Part shown: piece by piece, positions 11,263 to 60,905 of the stretch
How the letters are laid out: the number at the start of each line of letters is the position of its first letter
Numbering within the stretch: position 1 is the first letter of the stretch
Assembly: GCA_949288485.1 (NCBI GenBank)
Contig: CASEKC010000001.1
Coordinates: forward strand, 71,070 to 135,069
DNA length: 64,000 nucleotides
Source: an uncultured bacterium
Lineage (GTDB): Bacteria; Bacillota_I; Bacilli_A; RFN20; CAG-826
Reading direction: 5' to 3'
The notes under the pieces: model-generated
What the model saw: the letters and a program-made list of their open reading frames with translations, nothing else
Databases searched by the model: none
Told to the model about the DNA's origin: nothing
Translations under genes and position numbers: made by a program

Positions 11263-11290
11263 GAATCCTCATTAAGTTGAGGATTTTTTT
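11263..11290 (+). terminator. rho-independent terminator GAATCCTCA-ttaagt-TGAGGATTC followed by T8
   Basis: Perfect 9-bp stem plus T tract directly after rpsU. Confidence 0.7.
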
Positions 11291-11345
11291 AATAAAAAAA
11301 TGCATAAATTTTTTATTTTTAGCCTTCTTGTATATAGAAGGAGAA
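11291..11345 (+). repeat. copy 1 of a ~60-bp leader element: A7-TGCATAAATTTT-N8-AGCcTTCTTGTATA-ta-GAAGGAG
   Basis: Shares TGCATAAATTTT and AGCnTTCTTGTATA blocks, at the same spacing, with the reverse complements of 37194-37262 and 60844-60905. CCTTCT (11323-11328) can pair with AGAAGG (11336-11341), which overlaps the SD. Confidence 0.5.
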
Positions 11346-16342: not shown

Positions 16343-18239
16343 AAATAACCAAAATACTGATTTATTCGATTCAATTTTAAGAAAAGTCGATATCGTTGAT
16401 ATTATCGGACATTACTTAAATTTAGAAAAAAAAGGACGTAATTATACTGCTTTATGTCCTTTTCATGATGATAAACAACTAGGTAACTTTTTTGTTTCTC
16501 AAGAAAAACAAGTTTTTAAATGTTTTGCTTGTAATAAAAGTGGTAATGCGATTGCATTTGTAAAAGAAAAAGAAAGATGTTCTTGGATTGAAGCAGCAAA
16601 AAAGGTTTGCGAAATCGCTAATATTGTTGAACCAGGATTGGAAAATTTTAAAGAAACAAAAAAAGATCCTAAAGTTGAGAAAACTTTGCAAATTTTAAAA
16701 GATATTTCACTTTTTTATTCATTATCTCTTTTTCAAAGTGATGAAGGAAAAGACGCTTTAAATTATTTGCATAATAGAGGCTTAAATGATGATATTATTC
16801 GACATTTTGGAATTGGTTATGCTTTAAAAGATGGTTCGAAGGTTATTGAATTCTTAACGAAAGAAAAAAATTATTCGTTAAAAGAAATTGATGAAACCGG
16901 AATTATTGATTTAAAAAACAATGTTATAAAAGATAAAAATTATGGCCGTATAGCTTTTTTTATAAAAAATAGTAATAACGAAGTTTGCGGTTTTAGTTGC
17001 AGAATATTTGGCGATAAAAAATCTGATGCTAAATACGTTAATACCTCAAGTACAATTGTTTTTAATAAATCCAATATTTTATATAACTATTTCGACGCTA
17101 TTAGTGAAAGTGCGAAAGTAGGGTATGTATATTTATTAGAAGGATTTATGGATGTTATTGCTTGTTATCGAGCAAACATTAAAAGTGCAGTTGGACTTAT
17201 GGGAACCTCACTAACGAAAAATCATTTAAAAATGTTAAAAGATTTGAAATGTGAAGTTCGTTTATGTCTAGATTTAGATAAACCTGGTCAGAATGCAATG
17301 TATAAAGCTTTTCCTTTATTAGAAAGTTATTCAATTCCTTATCGAGTTGTTAATAATGATGTTGATTTTAATTATAAGGATAGCGATGAAATTATAGATC
17401 ATCTAGGAAATGAAAAATTAATATCATATTTATCAAATGTGACTGATAAATTAAATTGGTTAGTTAATTATTTTAAGAAAAATCTTGATTTAAATATTTT
17501 AGAAAACAAAGAGAAGATGATTAATTTCTTCGTTACAATTCTAAAAAATAACGCTGATCAAATTTTAGTTGATTCCTATATAAAGGAATTAGAAAAAGTT
17601 ACAAATGTCTCTTATAACGTTATTAAAGACATGATTGATAAAGCAAAATTAGATACGAGTATCAACGTAGATAATTTTGAAATCGAAGATAAAGAATATA
17701 TAGATGAATTTGAATCTTCTAAAAATGAAATTAAAAGAACAAAATTACGTGAATCTAAAATTATAAAATCGGAGCGTTTGCTCCTAAGTTATATGTTAAA
17801 AAATGAAGAAGCAATTTCAATTTTTAAAGAAAAAATTAATTCATTTTATACTCCGATATTTAGCGAACTATATGAGATAGTTTCACAGTATATAAATGAA
17901 AAAAATGATTTTGCCTTTAGTAAAGATAAATTAGAAAATATCGTTAATAGTTCTTCATGTGATAAAAAAGAAGATTTAAAAATAGAAATTAGCAAGATCT
18001 TCACATTAAAAAATTATGATTCTTACAGTAAAGATATTGTTGAAGAGTTAATTGAAAATATTAAATTTGAACGAAATTTAATAAATATTAAAAAAAGTAA
18101 TCAGGAATTACTTAAAAATAAAAATGGTGACAGTGATGAATATTTACTTTCATTATTATCATCATCAAAAAATAAAATGGCAGAAAAAACGGCCTATGAA
18201 AGGGGGAAATATGGCAAAAACAGCAAAAAAATTGGATAA
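16326..18239 (+). CDS. dnaG: DNA primase DnaG
   Basis: Zinc ribbon CPFHDDKQ...CFAC and a TOPRIM domain. Probable TTG start at 16326 overlapping the glyQS stop. Confidence 0.85.
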
Positions 18240-19479
18240 AGAACAACTCACAAAAGAAGTTGGTAAAATCGTAAAGAATAAAGGTTTTGTTGATGAAGAT
18301 TCTGAAGAAGAAGGAATTGAAACACTTGATGCGATTTTAAAAAGATTTTTAAAAGAAAATGCTGATACTAAAGAAATAGATCAAGATTTTTTCATTGAGT
18401 CAACACGTAGATTCGATCTTTCTGATGAAGACATTGATAAAATTTTCCAATATTTTACTAGCAACGGATATAGTTTAGTCGGAGAAGGAAATAGTGATGA
18501 TATTGAATTTGATGAAAATTCCATTAGTGAAATAGAAGACATGGGTGATATGGATGATTTTGACGAAGATATTGATGGTGATGACGTTGATGGTTTAAAT
18601 ATCGACGTTGATAATCTTGATTCTTTCGTTTTAAGTGATGTTAAAGTTAATGATAGTGTTAAATTATATTTAAAAGAAATCGGTCGTGTTAAATTATTAA
18701 AAGCTGAAGATGAAAAAGAATTAGCTGTTCGTATTTTAAAAGGTGATCAAAAAGCTAAAAACGAATTAATTAATGCAAATTTACGTTTAGTTGTTTCAAT
18801 TGCAAAACATTATTTAGGTAGAGGTATGCCTCTTTTAGATTTAATCGAAGAAGGAAACATGGGCTTAATGAAAGCAGTTGATAAATTTGATTATACTAAA
18901 GGTTTTAAATTTTCAACTTATGCTACTTGGTGGATTCGTCAAGCTATTACAAGAGCTATCGCCGATCAAGCTAGAACTATTAGAATTCCTGTTCATATGG
19001 TTGAAACAATTAATAAAATTACAAGAGTTCAACGTCAACTTACTCAAGAATTAGGAAGAGAACCAACACCAGAAGAAATATCTTCAAAAATGGATGGTGC
19101 TATGACTCCTGATAGAATTCGTGAAATTCAAAGAATTGCCCTTGAACCAGTTTCATTAGAATCTCCAATTGGTGAAGAAGATGATTCTCATTTAGGTGAT
19201 TTCGTTGAAGATAAAGAAAGTCTTTCTCCAACCGAATTTACATCAAAAACTATGTTAAGAGAAGCTTTATATGATGTAATGAGCAACTTAACAGAAAGAG
19301 AAGAAAGAGTTTTAAAATTACGTTATGGTCTTGACGACAATAAACCTAGAACATTAGAAGAAGTAGGAAAAGAATTCGGCGTTACTAGAGAAAGAATTCG
19401 TCAAATTGAAGCTAAAGCTATAAAAAAATTAAAACATCCTACAAAACAAAAGAAGTTAGATGATTTTTCAGTTAATTAA
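18211..19479 (+). CDS. sigA: RNA polymerase sigma factor SigA (RpoD)
   Basis: Regions 1.2-4.2 complete, including [18 protein letters not shown] and the 4.2 helix-turn-helix. RBS GGGGG at 18203-18207. The track ORF from 18124 overlaps dnaG. Confidence 0.9.
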
Positions 19480-19499: not shown

Positions 19500-20657
19500 A
19501 TGAAAAAACAACTTAATACTTTAATAAAAAATACTTTGATAAAAGAAAGTTTAGACGATAATACCATTTCATTAATATTATCGTCCTTAAACGATCTAAT
19601 TTCTGATGATGAAAAAAATAAAATTATCGATAAAGACGATTTTTATGATTGTTTAGACGAGTTTTCATTAAAAGAATCAACCATTAAAAAGATTAAAGAT
19701 ATATTAATAAAAAATAACTTTAAAATTATAAATCACGATGAAGTAATTGTTGAAGATATTAATGATGTTTTGGAAGATGAAGAAGATATTTCAAATAACG
19801 AGAAGACTTTTTCAAGTGAAAAAGCTAATGATGATTTGCGACAATATTTTAAAAATATTGGAACCAATAAACTTTTAACTCCAAAAGAAGAAATTGAAAT
19901 TGCTAAAAGAATAAAAAATGGTGATGAAAATGCAAAAAATGAGTTAATAGAAGCCAATACTCGTTTAGTTATTTCAATTGCAAAAAGATATGTAAATAGA
20001 GGAGTTCCTCTTCAAGATTTGATTCAAGAAGGAAATTTAGGTTTAATTCGTGCAGCTGAAAAATTCGATTATAAATTAGGTAACAAGTTTTCAACTTATG
20101 CAACTTGGTGGATTCGTCAAGCTATAACAAAAGCTATTGCTGATCAAGCAAGAAATATTAGAATTCCGCTTCATGTAATTGATATTTTAAATAAAATTTC
20201 TAGAACAAAGAATGAGTTTATTCAAGAAAAAGGGTATGAACCAACCGCTGAAGAAATTTATTTAAAATTAAATAAAACTATACCAATAGAGAAGATAGAT
20301 GCCGCCTTACTTTTAGGTAAAGACACGATTTCCTTGGAAAGTAGTGTTGGTGATAATCAAGATGCTGAATTAGGGGATTTTATCGAAGATAAAACCGATA
20401 ATTCACCAATAGATTTTACTTCAAAAAATGACTTAAATCTTTTAATAAAAGATGCACTTTGTACATTAGATGAAAGAGAAAAAGATGTTATTAAACTTCG
20501 TTATGGTTTAGATGATGAAGAAGAACATACTTTAGCCGAAATTGGAAAAAAATATAATATTTCGCGTGAAAGAGTTCGACAAATTGAAACAAAAGCTCTT
20601 TTCAAGTTAAGAAAAAGTTTAAACGAGAAAAAAATATATGATAGCGAAGAGAATTGA
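19500..20657 (+). CDS. second complete sigma-70 family factor (RpoD paralog, group 1/2-like)
   Basis: Regions 1.2, 2.1-2.4, 3 and 4 all present. Region 2.4 ([25 protein letters not shown]) is nearly identical to SigA. Only 20 nt after the sigA stop, with no evident RBS. Confidence 0.8.
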
Positions 20658-28891: not shown

Positions 28892-28909
28892 ATACGATAT
28901 TTATCGTAT
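28892..28909. promoter_or_regulatory. 18-bp dyad ATACGAT-attt-ATCGTAT, flanked by A8 and T6, between the divergent plsY and parE starts
   Basis: Perfect 7-bp inverted repeat. No gene terminates here, so an operator or leader structure is more likely than a terminator. Confidence 0.35.
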
Positions 28910-36500: not shown

Positions 36501-36528
36501 AAAAAAGCGATAAATATCGAATATTTTA
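36501..36528. terminator. weak hairpin A7-G-CGATA-aa-TATCG-aaTATTTT (member of the CGATA..TATCG family)
   Basis: 5-bp stem with A and T tracts, between the convergent yqeK and the 176-aa hypothetical. Confidence 0.35.
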
Positions 36529-36617: not shown

Positions 36618-37148
36618 CTAACAAATATAATTGTTTTTCTTATAATTTCTATTTAATTCAAACTTTTTATTAGCTAATCTTAAATAATATAATTGTATTC
36701 TTTCAACTTGATCTATATTTAAATATCCATAACCTCTAGAAAGTATTTTATTATCTTTAATATTAACCAATTTCTTATTGATCATTTTTATTCCTTCTAA
36801 GCGAGCATAAAATATATTATTTCTACTAATTAATGGCAAAATCCCTATTTCAAGGAATTTTTTACAATCAACTTTAGTGTTCATCTTATTAAATGTTTCT
36901 AAAGGGCAAATAAAAACTGTATTATCGTTATTCATGCTATCTTCTAAAGATAAAGCTAATTTAAATATAGGATTATTATTGTTATCAAATCTTGATACAT
37001 ATTGAAATATTTGGCCCTTGTAAATTGGAAAATTATTTGTTGGTAATGGTGATCTATAACCATTGTTTAGTGAATCTTCGAGATCTTTATTAACGTTTTT
37101 AGCATATAAAGTCCGTCTTGATAAATGATAAGTATTAATGAAATCCAT
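36618..37148 (-). CDS. hypothetical protein (176 aa, soluble), lineage-specific
   Basis: Start placed at MDFINTYHLS, preceded by AGGAGG-tagaaat-ATG. The track's upstream TTG extension is unsupported. No recognisable domain. Confidence 0.45.
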   Translation of the reverse strand: MDFINTYHLSRRTLYAKNVNKDLEDSLNNGYRSPLPTNNFPIYKGQIFQYVSRFDNNNNPIFKLALSLEDSMNNDNTVFICPLETFNKMNTKVDCKKFLEIGILPLISRNNIFYARLEGIKMINKKLVNIKDNKILSRGYGYLNIDQVERIQLYYLRLANKKFELNRNYKKNNYIC

Positions 37149-37193: not shown

Positions 37194-37262
37194 TTCACTA
37201 TACAAGAATGCTAGAATTTTAAAATTTATGCATATTTTTTTAAAAATTTTTAAGAGAGCTAC
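37194..37262 (-). repeat. copy A of the ~60-bp leader element (sense on the minus strand)
   Basis: Reverse complement reads ttaaaaatttttaaaaaaataTGCATAAATTTTaaaattctAGCaTTCTTGTATAgtGAAAAG, 46 nt upstream of the 176-aa ORF start. Confidence 0.5.
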
Positions 37263-37273
37263 TGCTAAAAATG

Positions 37274-37303
37274 AAAAAAAGCCGATTTTTATCGACTTTT
37301 TTT
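37274..37303. terminator. hairpin A7-GC-CGAT-ttttt-ATCG-aC followed by T8, a probable bidirectional terminator
   Basis: Downstream of the permease gene (minus) and upstream of element copy A. Same family as 36501-36528 and 28892-28909. Confidence 0.45.
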
Positions 37304-56674: not shown

Positions 56675-57631
56675 CTATTTTTTATAAAATTCTTGATAAA
56701 TTTCTTCTCCAAATTTTGTTAATTTTCTACCTTGTTTTGTCCTTTCAATAATACCTTTATTTACTAAATAAGGTTCATTAATATTTTTTAAATTATTAAC
56801 TTCATCATTTAATAATGCTGAAATTGCTTCTAAAGAGGTTGGATGAATAAATTTTTCTTTCATAATTTTAATTATTTCTAAATCTTCATTTGTTAAACCA
56901 TATTTATTAATTTTTAAAAATGAAAATGCTCTTAATAATTCATTTTTATCGAATTTATCGATTTTTTTATATATTTTATAATCAAATAAACGTTTTAATA
57001 AATTATTTAAATATCTTGGTGTATTTCGACTTCTTAAGACTATTTCTTCATAACATTCTTCATCTAATTTTAAGTTAAAAATTTTCTCATTTGATTTAAT
57101 TATTTCAATTATTTCATTCTTTTTATAATAATCAAATTTAAAAATAATTGAAAAACGATCTCTTAAAGGAATTGATAAAGTGCCTGCATTTGTTGTCGCA
57201 CCTATTAAAGTAAATGGAGGTAAAGAAAAAGATAAAGCTTTAACATTTTCCTCGCTTTTATAAGTAGCATGAATTTTAAAATCTTCCATTGCACTATATA
57301 AAATTTCCATAAACTCTTTTTTTAAACGATGTATTTCATCAATAAACAAAAAATCTCCAGGATTTAATTGACCTAAAATCGAAATTAATTCATTCCCTTT
57401 TGCAATTGATGAAGCAGTTATTGTTATAATATTTCCTTTCATTTCATTAGAAATAATATATGCTAAAGTTGTTTTTCCTAAACCAGGAGGACCATAAAAT
57501 AAAATATGATCTAAAACTGTTTTTCGACTTTTCGCACTATAAATAAAAGCTTTTAATTGAGAAATGATTTCTTTTTGGCCAAAAAATGAATTTAATGATT
57601 TAGGACGAAGATTATTATCAATATTATTCAT
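56675..57631 (-). CDS. ruvB: Holliday junction helicase RuvB
   Basis: AAA+ motifs (GPPGLGKTTLA, DEIHR). Confidence 0.92.
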   Translation of the reverse strand: MNNIDNNLRPKSLNSFFGQKEIISQLKAFIYSAKSRKTVLDHILFYGPPGLGKTTLAYIISNEMKGNIITITASSIAKGNELISILGQLNPGDFLFIDEIHRLKKEFMEILYSAMEDFKIHATYKSEENVKALSFSLPPFTLIGATTNAGTLSIPLRDRFSIIFKFDYYKKNEIIEIIKSNEKIFNLKLDEECYEEIVLRSRNTPRYLNNLLKRLFDYKIYKKIDKFDKNELLRAFSFLKINKYGLTNEDLEIIKIMKEKFIHPTSLEAISALLNDEVNNLKNINEPYLVNKGIIERTKQGRKLTKFGEEIYQEFYKK

Positions 57632-58224
57632 TTTTTCATTCCTCTTATTGCTTCTTTTAAAGCTTCATCATCGCTTAATCCATCTTTTAAATTATTCATT
57701 GAATCAGTTATTTCATTTTGTGAATAACCTAATGATTTTAAAGCTAAATAAACATTTGAATATTTTGATAAATATTCATCGTTTTTATCGATATTATCAG
57801 CTAATTTTAAAACGATAGATTCAGCAAAAACACCTATTCCTTTTATTTTTCTAAGTTCAGAAATATTTTTTGTTTTAATTAAAAAAATCAGTTCTTCCAC
57901 TTTTACATTTCCTAAAATTTGTAATGCTTTTTTAGGACCAATTCCATTTACTTCGATTAACTTAATAAATATTTCGTATTCTTTATAAGTTTTAAATCCG
58001 CAAAGTAAAACTCTATCATCTTTCAAATAATCATAGATATAAAGCTTATTTTCTTCGCTTAAAGTAAATTTTTCATTTGGTTTTGTAAAAATTTCGTAAC
58101 CGATTTTATTTACTTCAAAAATAATTTTGTTAAATTTTATATTTTTAATAGTTCCAAAAAAATATGAATACATTAAATTAATATTTTTTTTGATGAATAA
58201 ATTATTCAAAATATTCAAATTCAA
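57628..58224 (-). CDS. ruvA: Holliday junction DNA helicase RuvA
   Basis: OB, HhH (GIGPKKA) and C-terminal domains. Coupled to ruvB. Confidence 0.85.
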   Translation of the reverse strand: MNLNILNNLFIKKNINLMYSYFFGTIKNIKFNKIIFEVNKIGYEIFTKPNEKFTLSEENKLYIYDYLKDDRVLLCGFKTYKEYEIFIKLIEVNGIGPKKALQILGNVKVEELIFLIKTKNISELRKIKGIGVFAESIVLKLADNIDKNDEYLSKYSNVYLALKSLGYSQNEITDSMNNLKDGLSDDEALKEAIRGMKK

Positions 58225-60456: not shown

Positions 60457-60565
60457 ATGTTTCCTCCTTTAATTAAATAATTACTCGCTCTGAAGGTATT
60501 TATTAATAAAAAATAAATTTTTAAAGACCTTTTTAATGCGGTTGTAGCTAATTAAGAGTTACAAC
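60457..60565 (-). ncRNA. putative structured 5' leader of the rplU-prp-rpmA operon (L21-leader-like)
   Basis: About 108-nt leader with nested inverted repeats (GTTGTAGC...GTTACAAC, flanked by AGACCTTTT...AAAAGACT), ahead of the SD. Confidence 0.3.
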
Positions 60566-60572
60566 GTAAAAG

Positions 60573-60601
60573 ACTATATCATAAAGTATGCTTAAAATCA
60601 A
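60573..60601 (-). promoter_or_regulatory. putative sigma-70 promoter TTGATT-N17-TATAGT (minus strand) for the rplU operon
   Basis: Reverse complement reads ttgatt-ttaagcatactttatga-tatagt. Confidence 0.4.
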
Positions 60602-60647
60602 TAAAAAATAGCGTTAAAATCGAAAGAATTTGCTAGTATTTATTAAA

Positions 60648-60830
60648 TTAATTCCATGAGAACTGATATCCACCTGGAAGTTTAATTATTCCATCATTTG
60701 ATGTAAATAATTTATAAGCAGCTACCGCAATAATTGAAACAATCATAATTGCAATAATAGCAGCTAAAGTTACCGCTTCACCAGGTTTAATATTTTCTAG
60801 TTCTTCTTCACTTAAGATAACTTTATTCAT
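60648..60830 (-). CDS. hypothetical 60-aa single-pass membrane peptide
   Basis: MNKVILSEEELENIKPGEAVTLAAIIAIMIVSIIAVAAYKLFTSNDGIIKLPGGYQFSWN. Strong SD GGGAGG-ttttttg-ATG. The track's upstream extension falls inside the repeated leader element. Confidence 0.45.
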   Translation of the reverse strand: MNKVILSEEELENIKPGEAVTLAAIIAIMIVSIIAVAAYKLFTSNDGIIKLPGGYQFSWN

Positions 60831-60843
60831 CAAAAAACCTCCC

Positions 60844-60905
60844 TTCACAATACAAGAATGCTCCGAGAGGCAAAAATTATTCACTTTTTTTAAATATTTT
60901 TAATT
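60844..60905 (-). repeat. copy B of the ~60-bp leader element (sense on the minus strand), overlapping the valS stop
   Basis: Reverse complement reads aattaaaaatatttaaaaaaaGTGAATAATTTTtgcctctcgGAGCaTTCTTGTATtgtGAAGGGAGG-ttttttg-ATG. Same block spacing (41 nt) as copy A. Confidence 0.5.

Follow-up and report, generated by a model that had tools for sequence, protein, structure and literature searches.

In 64,000 nucleotides (nt) of genome from an uncultured member of the Bacilli (contig CASEKC010000001.1, positions 71,070 to 135,069; "the window"), three genes are preceded by copies of a short two-block DNA element. From sequence comparisons, we conclude that this element is a conserved and highly specific cis-signal of a predicted regulon for DNA uptake (competence) and recombination, and that the three window genes belong to it. 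An earlier note had described the element as a leader shared by unrelated, lineage-specific accessory genes. However, in related genomes the motif also lies ahead of recA, comEA-comEC, comFA-comFC, and a secretion-ATPase locus, and orthologues of the window genes keep the motif, which is why we place the window genes in a competence regulon. With moderate confidence, we also propose that the element is the common promoter of this regulon in uncultured low-GC, small-genome Bacilli, and that it is read by an alternative sigma factor.

A two-block motif with fixed geometry

The window has a GC content of 26%, and the housekeeping genes on it are those of a member of the Bacilli with a small genome. 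TGA seems to act as a stop codon: open reading frames (ORFs) called with genetic code 4 extend into adjacent ORFs and are little longer than with code 11. By reading the sequence, we found all three segments where the earlier note had placed them (copies 1, A, and B; Table 1). AGCNTTCTTGTAT occurs exactly three times in the window, at 11321-11333 (+), 37212-37200 (-), and 60862-60850 (-), each time upstream of a gene in the sense direction and with TG(C/A)ATAA 13-14 nt ahead of it. If up to one mismatch is allowed, 0.58 matches to AGCNTTCTTGTAT are expected in the window, and none of 100 shuffles gets to three. The 19-mer AGCATTCTTGTATNGTGAA, with up to three mismatches, finds only the same three sites in the window (0.06 expected). 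Copy 1 and copy A make up the longest of the window's 1671 inverted repeats (53 nt, 81%). We also made a two-block position matrix from 18 copies. It scores the three window copies at 38-43 bits and every other site in the window below 10 bits; the maximum across 10 Markov shuffles of the window was 17 bits.

Much of the earlier description holds. Copies A and B agree at 18 of 19 positions of a 19-mer, ATGCATAAATTTT is common to copies 1 and A, copies 1 and B run straight into the Shine-Dalgarno sequence (SD) and ATG, terminators stand ahead of copies 1 and A, and the element is non-coding. The three downstream ORFs also match their earlier description: they encode a standalone C39-peptidase membrane protein (Peptidase_C39 at 51.5 bits), a 176-amino-acid (aa) protein, and a 60-aa membrane peptide. 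The spacing of the blocks was said to be identical, but in the best register, which aligns TGCATAA with TGAATAA, copy B has a spacer of 14 nt, one more than the 13 nt of copies 1 and A. The full two-block motif is found only at the three sites, and the upstream 12-mer TGCATAAATTTT alone is not enriched in the window (49 matches with up to two mismatches, versus 66 expected).

Across the copies from the window and from related genomes, block i is [T/G]G-N-[A/T][T/A]AA, typically (G/T)TGAATAA. It is followed by 13 or 14 nt of free sequence and then by block iii, which is [A/G/T][A/G/T]C-N-TTCTTG-(T/A)(A/T)(T/A). In 20 aligned copies, neither TTCTTG nor the G of block i varies. The rule TGNATAA-N13/14-AGCNTTCTTGTAT is true of 15 of 15 close copies, and 9 more distant copies have the same spacing. 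The motif is asymmetric, the blocks do not repeat each other in direct or inverted orientation, and every gene-linked copy is in the sense orientation. In most copies, block iii begins 27-34 nt before the start codon (55-64 nt in one lineage) and the SD lies 0-8 nt past block iii. For the 176-aa gene of this lineage, the SD is 39 nt past block iii. Copy B begins 6 nt past the stop codon of valS (60890-60892) with no terminator in between. Block i is more variable than block iii: the closest genomes have (A/T)(G/T)TGAATAA, two of the three copies in the window have TGCATAA, and distant orthologues from the 176-aa family have TGTAAAA, TGAAAGA, GGTATAA, GGTTAAA, or GGCATAA.

Genes behind the motif in related genomes

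We scanned 185,579 species genomes with the pattern ATACAAGAANGCTN{7,12}AAAWTTATKCA and obtained 13 matches: eight in CASFZN01, three in CASEVI01, one in CALVYH01, and one in Sebaldella. The match in Sebaldella is apparently due to chance; the other 12 are real, and lie in three related metagenome-assembled genomes. With those found by looking up orthologues, the copies outside the window number about 20 and come from at least 10 assemblies of related low-GC Bacilli. (Names such as L131 refer to loci from related genomes, about 200 kb in all.) The consensus of the scan copies is TTTAAAAAAAGTGAATAATTTTT-N8-9-AGCGTTCTTGTAT(AGT/ATA), with an SD a few bases 3' and the start codon about 30 nt from the AGC. 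A 15-base pattern, AGCNTTCTTGTATNNNGAA, had proved too noisy on viral contigs (at least 120 scattered single matches, taken as chance noise), so the two-block pattern was used for the genome scan. The two-block pattern had no matches in viral contigs and two matches in Joint Genome Institute (JGI) metagenomes, which we judge to be due to chance (39-42% GC and unrelated contexts). A matrix scan of the related loci found no copies beyond the known ones except at L135 (23.0 bits), a match that was seeded by the search pattern and that we take to be due to chance. A literature search did not find the motif string in a relevant context.

In the relatives, the motif lies ahead of recA (TIGR02012, 493 bits). 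It also lies ahead of comEA (HHH_3 and SLBB domains; 67 bits to TIGR00426, whose cut-off is 53), which is followed by comEC and holA. This comEC has the Competence and Lactamase_B domains but scores 162 bits against TIGR00361, under its cut-off of 190. Another copy precedes a comFA-like zinc-finger DEAD helicase and then a zinc-finger phosphoribosyltransferase (PRTase), which has 71 bits to TIGR00201 (cut-off 233.55). We read this pair as comFA-comFC from the architecture (zinc finger and PRTase domain) and from synteny. Two secreted proteins, each with its own copy of the motif, head a locus that encodes a T2SSE ATPase, which matches VirB11 and TadA best (L123:1638-6336). Orthologues of the window genes with the motif are found at L131 (C39 protein), at L129, L130, and L133 (60-aa peptide), and at L126 (a 198-aa homologue of the 176-aa protein; 32% identity, E = 5e-17). 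The earlier idea of a shared cis-regulatory element that marks a dispersed regulon is thus far supported.

We tested for wider conservation without presupposing the motif by considering orthologues from the 176-aa family and recA loci. The family orthologues (25-37% identity) all retain C-N-TTCTTG 3-6 nt before the SD, and each has a G-containing block i at the 13/14-nt distance. In five recA loci (72-86% RecA identity), the gene order is always pgsA-cinA-recA, and the motif lies between cinA and recA in four of the five (75-86% RecA identity); Ca. Onthovivens (72%) has no motif there. Overall, the motif is at orthologous sites across genomes whose proteins are 25-75% identical. In one relative, the entire motif lies inside the 3' end of cinA (L145:1462-1474), and a block iii variant, TTCTTGAAT, makes the TGA stop codon of cinA.

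The copies at L124 and L134 have no ORF after them. These orphans (L124:3320-3455 and L134:6205-6340, in bin CASFZN01) are inside a repeat of about 130 nt that opens with a sigma-A-like promoter (TTGACA-N17-AATAGT in L134) and closes with the hairpin TTGTAT-GTAT-ATACAA. The repeat contains TCACCCCCTTACA, the exact reverse complement of TGTAAGGGGGTGA, which is the ribosome-binding region of comFA in the same genome (L127). The repeat could encode an antisense or decoy small RNA (sRNA) of the regulon. The sigma-20 regulon of Mycoplasma genitalium likewise includes non-coding RNAs.

A predicted promoter and its proposed transcription start

We infer that RNA polymerase with a dedicated alternative sigma factor of the sigma-70 family would read the motif, with block i as the -35 element and the 5' part of block iii as the -10 element (KTGAAT-N18/19-NTTCTT). 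Transcription would start in or just past GTAT, which would give a short leader that begins immediately before the SD. The blocks are conserved and non-repeated, with spacing fixed to within 1 nt, as in a bipartite sigma-70-family promoter, and they lie in the sense orientation directly upstream of the regulated genes, as sigma-dependent promoters do. The asymmetry, the orientation, and the fixed spacing in non-orthologous copies favour a promoter-type signal at the level of DNA, which was one of the options in the earlier note. Block iii is unaltered in copies whose SD is some 40 nt distant (copy A, L138-140) and in those that have no SD (L124, L134), which also argues for a role in DNA. On this view, transcription would start 3' of most of the element, and the term "leader" is probably inapt. 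We rejected TATAGT/TATATA within block iii as a sigma-A -10 box because strong SDs start 0-5 nt after it. The canonical promoter upstream of rplU in the same genome looks quite unlike the motif (TTGATT-N17-TGATATAGT).

Some copies without a terminator follow a co-directional gene: those between valS and the peptide gene (in the window and in close relatives), ahead of comEA in L128, and between cinA and recA. (For the comEA copy in the relatives, the 5' co-directional gene is an unannotated ORF.) Several terminator-less copies bear a 7-8-nt complement of their own SD, upstream of GTAT. This anti-SD arm may be in the spacer (GCCTCTC, CCTCCTTT, or CCTCTT) or in block iii (UCUUGUAU, which pairs with AUACGAGG). 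The copies with such arms are at 60865-60871 of the window and in L128, L125, L145, and L148. In contrast, L130, a peptide orthologue with a terminator, has no anti-SD; L146 is terminator-less and has no predicted block. In predicted folds, the probability that the SD of copy B is unpaired is 0.02 if the RNA includes the spacer but 0.66 if the RNA starts after TTCTTG, and the medians across copies are 0.23 for the long RNA and 0.82 for the RNA that starts after TTCTTG. The probability is at most 0.02 for four of the seven terminator-less copies, versus one of the 13 with a terminator (Fisher's test at this threshold gives about 0.03 by hand calculation). Most copies with a terminator have no such arm; the exception is copy 1, where CCTTCT pairs with the SD (0.01).

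As the SD-sequestering arms are always upstream of GTAT, we prefer a transcription start that is 3' of the spacer. If transcription started upstream of the arms, then translation of recA, comEA, and the peptide would be blocked even when they were induced. The arms look like insulation of translation from read-through transcription: read-through RNA from the upstream gene would be translationally silent and the regulon's own transcript would be translated. In the fold-back inhibition of the IS10 and IS50 transposases, the 5' arm of an RNA that originates outside the element pairs with the ribosome-binding site, and the element's own transcript begins inside the hairpin and is free to be translated. 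We propose the same logic for the terminator-less copies. Unlike the case of IS10/IS50, our proposal comes from sequence and predicted folding, and it concerns chromosomal genes of a regulon rather than a transposase.

Several observations weigh against a promoter for an alternative sigma factor. We searched the 393 ORFs of the window and the related loci with phmmer, using sequences of SigH, ComX, and SigW as queries, and found only two rpoD paralogues. A search for a regulator in the related loci and among the uncharacterized ORFs of the window did not find any. NTTCTT has no A at -11 and is unlike any known -10 element, and the roughly 13 conserved positions of block iii are long for a -10 box. 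The start site is a prediction, and the link between terminators and anti-SD arms is marginal across all copies (Mann-Whitney test, one-sided p = 0.066). In most copies, UUCUU is predicted to pair with the SD, and it may therefore also act at the level of RNA. Also, GTGAATAA from the closest genomes resembles the core of the streptococcal cin-box, CGAATAA, which acts at -10 (PMC9300618).

The two rpoD-type genes are full-length sigma-70 genes in tandem (18124-19479 and 19500-20657, both on the + strand), which is unusual for so small a genome. Their sequences share 71% identity across 300 nt, regions 1.2-4.2 are present in both, and, as read from the translations, the DNA-contact residues are the same. 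We rejected the second paralogue (19500-20657) as the sigma factor of the regulon because its -10, extended -10, and -35 contact residues match those of RpoD. The tandem pair appears to be unrelated to the motif. We also compared the motif by eye to the boxes for sigma-54, sigma-B, and sigma-E/F/G/K, and for Rex, CRP/FNR, ArgR, TnrA, and CodY, and none of these consensus sequences fits both blocks at their spacing.

Known regulons and rival explanations

The cin-box or com-box of streptococci (TTNCGAATAA, recognized by ComX/SigX) is also a short asymmetric motif just upstream of dispersed competence genes. Its targets are the late operons comEA-EC, comFA-FC, and cinA-recA, along with species-specific accessory genes, and here too the late competence genes (comEA/EC, comFA/FC, and recA) are downstream of the motif. 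In streptococci, the accessory targets include competence-induced bacteriocins of the double-glycine type. However, the cin-box is a single box at -10, while our motif has a second and better-conserved block (C-N-TTCTTG) 13-14 nt downstream, before the SD. Also unlike the cin-box, the GAAT is not kept in the more distant members, the motif is between cinA and recA instead of before cinA, and the phmmer search of the window and the related loci did not find a ComX gene. The core of block i, TGAATAA, is one base away from the cin-box core CGAATAA (PMC9300618).

Another comparison is to sigma-20 (MG428) of M. genitalium, a dedicated sigma-70-family factor of a Bacilli relative with a reduced genome. 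Its promoters have a long spacer of 18/19 nt and lie 15-17 nt from the ATG. The promoters are TTGTCA-N18/19-ATTWAT in M. genitalium, near the ATG and with the start mapped 9 nt downstream, and TTGGCR-N18/19-ATTYAT in M. pneumoniae; the M. genitalium regulon includes recA, ruvAB, the sunT-like peptide exporter MG_390, small ORFs, and non-coding RNAs (PMC4446450, PMC6105099). If our motif is read as KTGAAT-N18/19-NTTCTT, then the spacing is the same, and the -10 of the window's lineage also begins with ATT (ATTCTT versus ATTCAT). As in the sigma-20 regulon, recA and a C39-domain protein carry the motif. On the other hand, the hexamers match the sigma-20 consensus at about 3 of 6 positions for the -35 and 3-5 of 6 for the -10, and ruvA/ruvB in the window (56675-58224) lack the motif. 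Our regulon also takes in comEA, comEC, comFA, and comFC, which the sigma-20 regulon does not, and unlike the hosts of sigma-20, these bacteria have strong SDs and use genetic code 11. By analogy, we regard the regulon as functionally the same kind as the cin-box regulon, with the sigma-20 regulon closer still. The motif fits neither consensus, so its sequence does not establish membership in either.

The main live rival to our proposal is the promoter-plus-operator option of the earlier note, which we view as possible but doubtful. In this scenario, block i would be the -10, either as a ComX/sigma-H-type box (RNNGAATWW, TTNCGAATAA) or as a weak sigma-A hexamer (nATAAt after TG), and the T-run or the spacer would contain the transcription start. 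Block iii, at about +10 to +25, would be the DNA operator of a competence repressor or a site in the 5' untranslated region where a protein or sRNA controls translation. Block i does fit the -10 consensus of sigma-H from Bacillus subtilis. GTGAATAA also shares 6 of the 7 positions of the cin-box core CGAATAA, and in another class of Bacilli, cin-boxes serve as the -10 for late com genes, among them recA (PMC9300618). This scenario could account for why block iii is conserved better than block i and is at a near-constant 3-8 nt before the SD, for the predicted pairing of UUCUU with the SD in most copies, and for the orphan copies in L124 and L134 being within a possible sigma-A-driven sRNA. But in distant orthologues, GAAT changes to GCAT, GTAT, GGAT, GAAA, GTAA, or GTTA, while TTCTTG never changes. 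The strict 13/14-nt spacing in non-orthologous copies would be unexpected for a promoter and a separate operator, and block iii is asymmetric, unlike typical repressor operators, and is kept in copy A with the SD 40 nt away. Furthermore, the mRNAs for comEA, recA, and the peptide would bear anti-SD stems of 7-8 bp, with SD unpaired probabilities of just 0.00-0.02. We view it as improbable that a sigma-A promoter is combined with an activator (ComK-like or another master regulator) that binds block i or both blocks. Activation of the ComK type is an established way to drive competence genes in Bacilli, and no alternative sigma factor was found in the window or the related loci. The core promoter would be poor (one candidate hexamer is nAGCNT, with A at position 2 and T at 6), although TAGCAT, GAGCAT, and AAGCGT do retain these two chief -10 positions. 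However, there is no match to the ComK family among the proteins that we scanned, the blocks lack the repeats or dyad that would be expected of a dimeric factor, and the conserved TTCTTGTAT downstream of the hexamer would be left unexplained. The K-boxes of ComK in B. subtilis are paired AAAA-N5-TTTT dyads upstream of sigma-A promoters. That too is a competence regulon of Bacilli that is defined by a shared upstream DNA motif, but in our 20 aligned copies, an A-run and a T-run flank the 8-nt GTGAATAA and there is no second box. We also rejected sites for LytTR regulators (ComE/BlpR/AgrA), which are 9-bp direct repeats that are 12 bp apart: GTGAATAAT and AGCGTTCTT are 21 nt apart but share just 2 of 9 positions.

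It is very unlikely that the three mRNAs share a structured cis-regulatory RNA (a riboswitch, a thermometer, or a regulatory leader), which was another option in the earlier note. Folds of single sequences do give hairpins that take in the SD, and the anti-SD:SD stems vary by locus (CCUCCUUU:AAAGGAGG or CCUCUC:GGGAGG). But the Rfam scan of the window had no matches at gathering thresholds, RNAalifold found 0 consensus pairs across 20 copies, and block iii is kept without a nearby SD. The conserved blocks are invariant in sequence, without co-variation, and the stem partners differ between copies and are strongest where the terminator is absent. Finally, a chance likeness of AT-rich intergenic DNA, or a mobile repeat similar to a miniature inverted-repeat transposable element (MITE), is effectively refuted. 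In a genome with 26% GC, strings like TGCATAAATTTT are common, but the shuffles exclude chance for the full motif, the copies are always sense to a gene and at orthologous positions across genomes, and the specific-pattern scans of viral contigs and JGI metagenomes gave none and two chance-like matches. We saw no terminal inverted repeats, target-site duplications, or variable presence as expected for a MITE.

Gene products, coordinates, and implications

The C39 protein keeps the Q...DC and H motifs, as read from its translation, and has a membrane domain but no ABC ATPase. Its best match in NCBIfam is the Mbov_0121 peptidase-domain ABC transporter family from Mycoplasma, and an identical protein is on a contig from sequencing run ERR10610666. 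The 60-aa peptide has a double-glycine-like leader, LSEEELENIKPG (LSxxELxxIxPG), and then a hydrophobic helix; cleavage is predicted after KPG. It has a weak match to TIGR03949 (17.1 bits, under the cut-off of 21.5).

The 176-aa protein has no match in Pfam even at E = 10, no NCBIfam model detects it, and a sequence-profile search of PDB gave only a spurious match to ribokinase. An AlphaFold2 (AF2) model with a mean confidence (pLDDT) of 74.5 was compared to known structures with Foldseek, which found MazF from Staphylococcus aureus, B. subtilis, and Mycobacterium tuberculosis (E = 6e-5, template-modelling score 0.69). As modelled, the protein is a MazF/PemK fold with extra helices at its N and C termini. 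It also has a near-invariant C-terminal Cys. We considered whether it could be a ComK or a sigma factor and rejected this because of the lack of Pfam matches and the MazF fold. The family is rare, with 13 proteins at E ≤ 0.001 among representatives of 50%-identity clusters. We also note that the gene is always solitary, after an ABC-permease gene, and that no antitoxin partner was noticed.

The peptide, the C39 protein, and the VirB11/TadA-type locus could form a competence-induced bacteriocin or fratricide system. Alternatively, they could make an unconventional pilus, with the C39 peptidase in place of a prepilin peptidase. Transformation of Micrococcus luteus depends on Flp/Tad (PMC4322843). 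A bolder combination, which we consider rather unlikely as a whole, is an undescribed transformation system with a new sigma factor and a new promoter specificity. In that system, the 60-aa peptide would form an uptake filament or export device, the standalone C39 protein would mature it, and the VirB11/TadA-type ATPase would power it. The MazF-fold protein would be co-induced, possibly for growth arrest or fratricide, and the orphan copies (L124/L134) would belong to an sRNA with an exact 13-nt antisense match to the ribosome-binding site of comFA.

Table 1. The three motif copies in the window and the features around them.
Feature	Positions	Strand	Remarks
rpsU intrinsic terminator, hairpin and T-run	11264..11292	+	Terminator scan and sequence; directly 5' of copy 1
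Copy 1, block i TGCATAA, proposed -35-like	11301..11307	+	Second-position G invariant in 20 copies
Copy 1, variable spacer, 13 nt	11308..11320	+	
Copy 1, block iii AGCCTTCTTGTAT, proposed -10 and start region	11321..11333	+	Invariant core TTCTTG
SD GAAGGAG of the C39 gene	11337..11343	+	Complementary to CCTTCT within block iii
Gene for standalone C39-peptidase membrane protein, 396 aa	11350..12540	+	PF03412, 51.5 bits
Terminator hairpin and T-run 5' of copy A	37274..37303	-	
Copy A, block i TGCATAA	37226..37232	-	
Copy A, block iii AGCATTCTTGTAT	37200..37212	-	
Gene for 176-aa protein, predicted MazF fold	36618..37148	-	AF2 model and Foldseek
Copy B, block i TGAATAA	60877..60883	-	
Copy B, anti-SD GCCTCTC in the 14-nt spacer	60865..60871	-	Pairs with SD GGGAGG
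Copy B, block iii AGCATTCTTGTAT	60850..60862	-	
SD GGGAGG of the 60-aa peptide gene	60838..60843	-	
Gene for 60-aa membrane peptide, between valS and rplU	60648..60830	-	

Two other features of these intergenic regions are worth recording. Many terminators of this lineage have a common palindromic core, (A)CGATA-N2-4-TATCG(T), followed by a T-run. In the window, this core is at 28895-28906, 36508-36519, and 37281-37296 (two exact matches versus 0.1 expected), and it is also in upstream regions in L126, L130, L137, L141, and L142. The region from the peptide gene to rplU (60457-60647, - strand) contains the extended -10 promoter mentioned above and then a leader of about 120 nt; an L21 leader is expected before rplU, but the window has no match to it in Rfam at the gathering score.

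The element is a real and conserved regulon signature, probably a competence-regulon promoter box, and the accessory genes of the regulon form an unusual set that may be novel. It provides a sequence handle on competence in a lineage that is known from metagenome bins alone, and scanning for it should list the whole regulon. It gives a biological context to three orphan families (the C39 membrane peptidase, the 60-aa peptide with a double-glycine leader, and the rare MazF-fold protein), and it points to a regulator with an unusual promoter specificity. The parallel to the sigma-20 recombination regulon of Mycoplasma suggests that such regulons may be widespread in reduced Bacilli and Mollicutes. 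Overall, our results predict that these small-genome gut Bacilli are naturally transformable.

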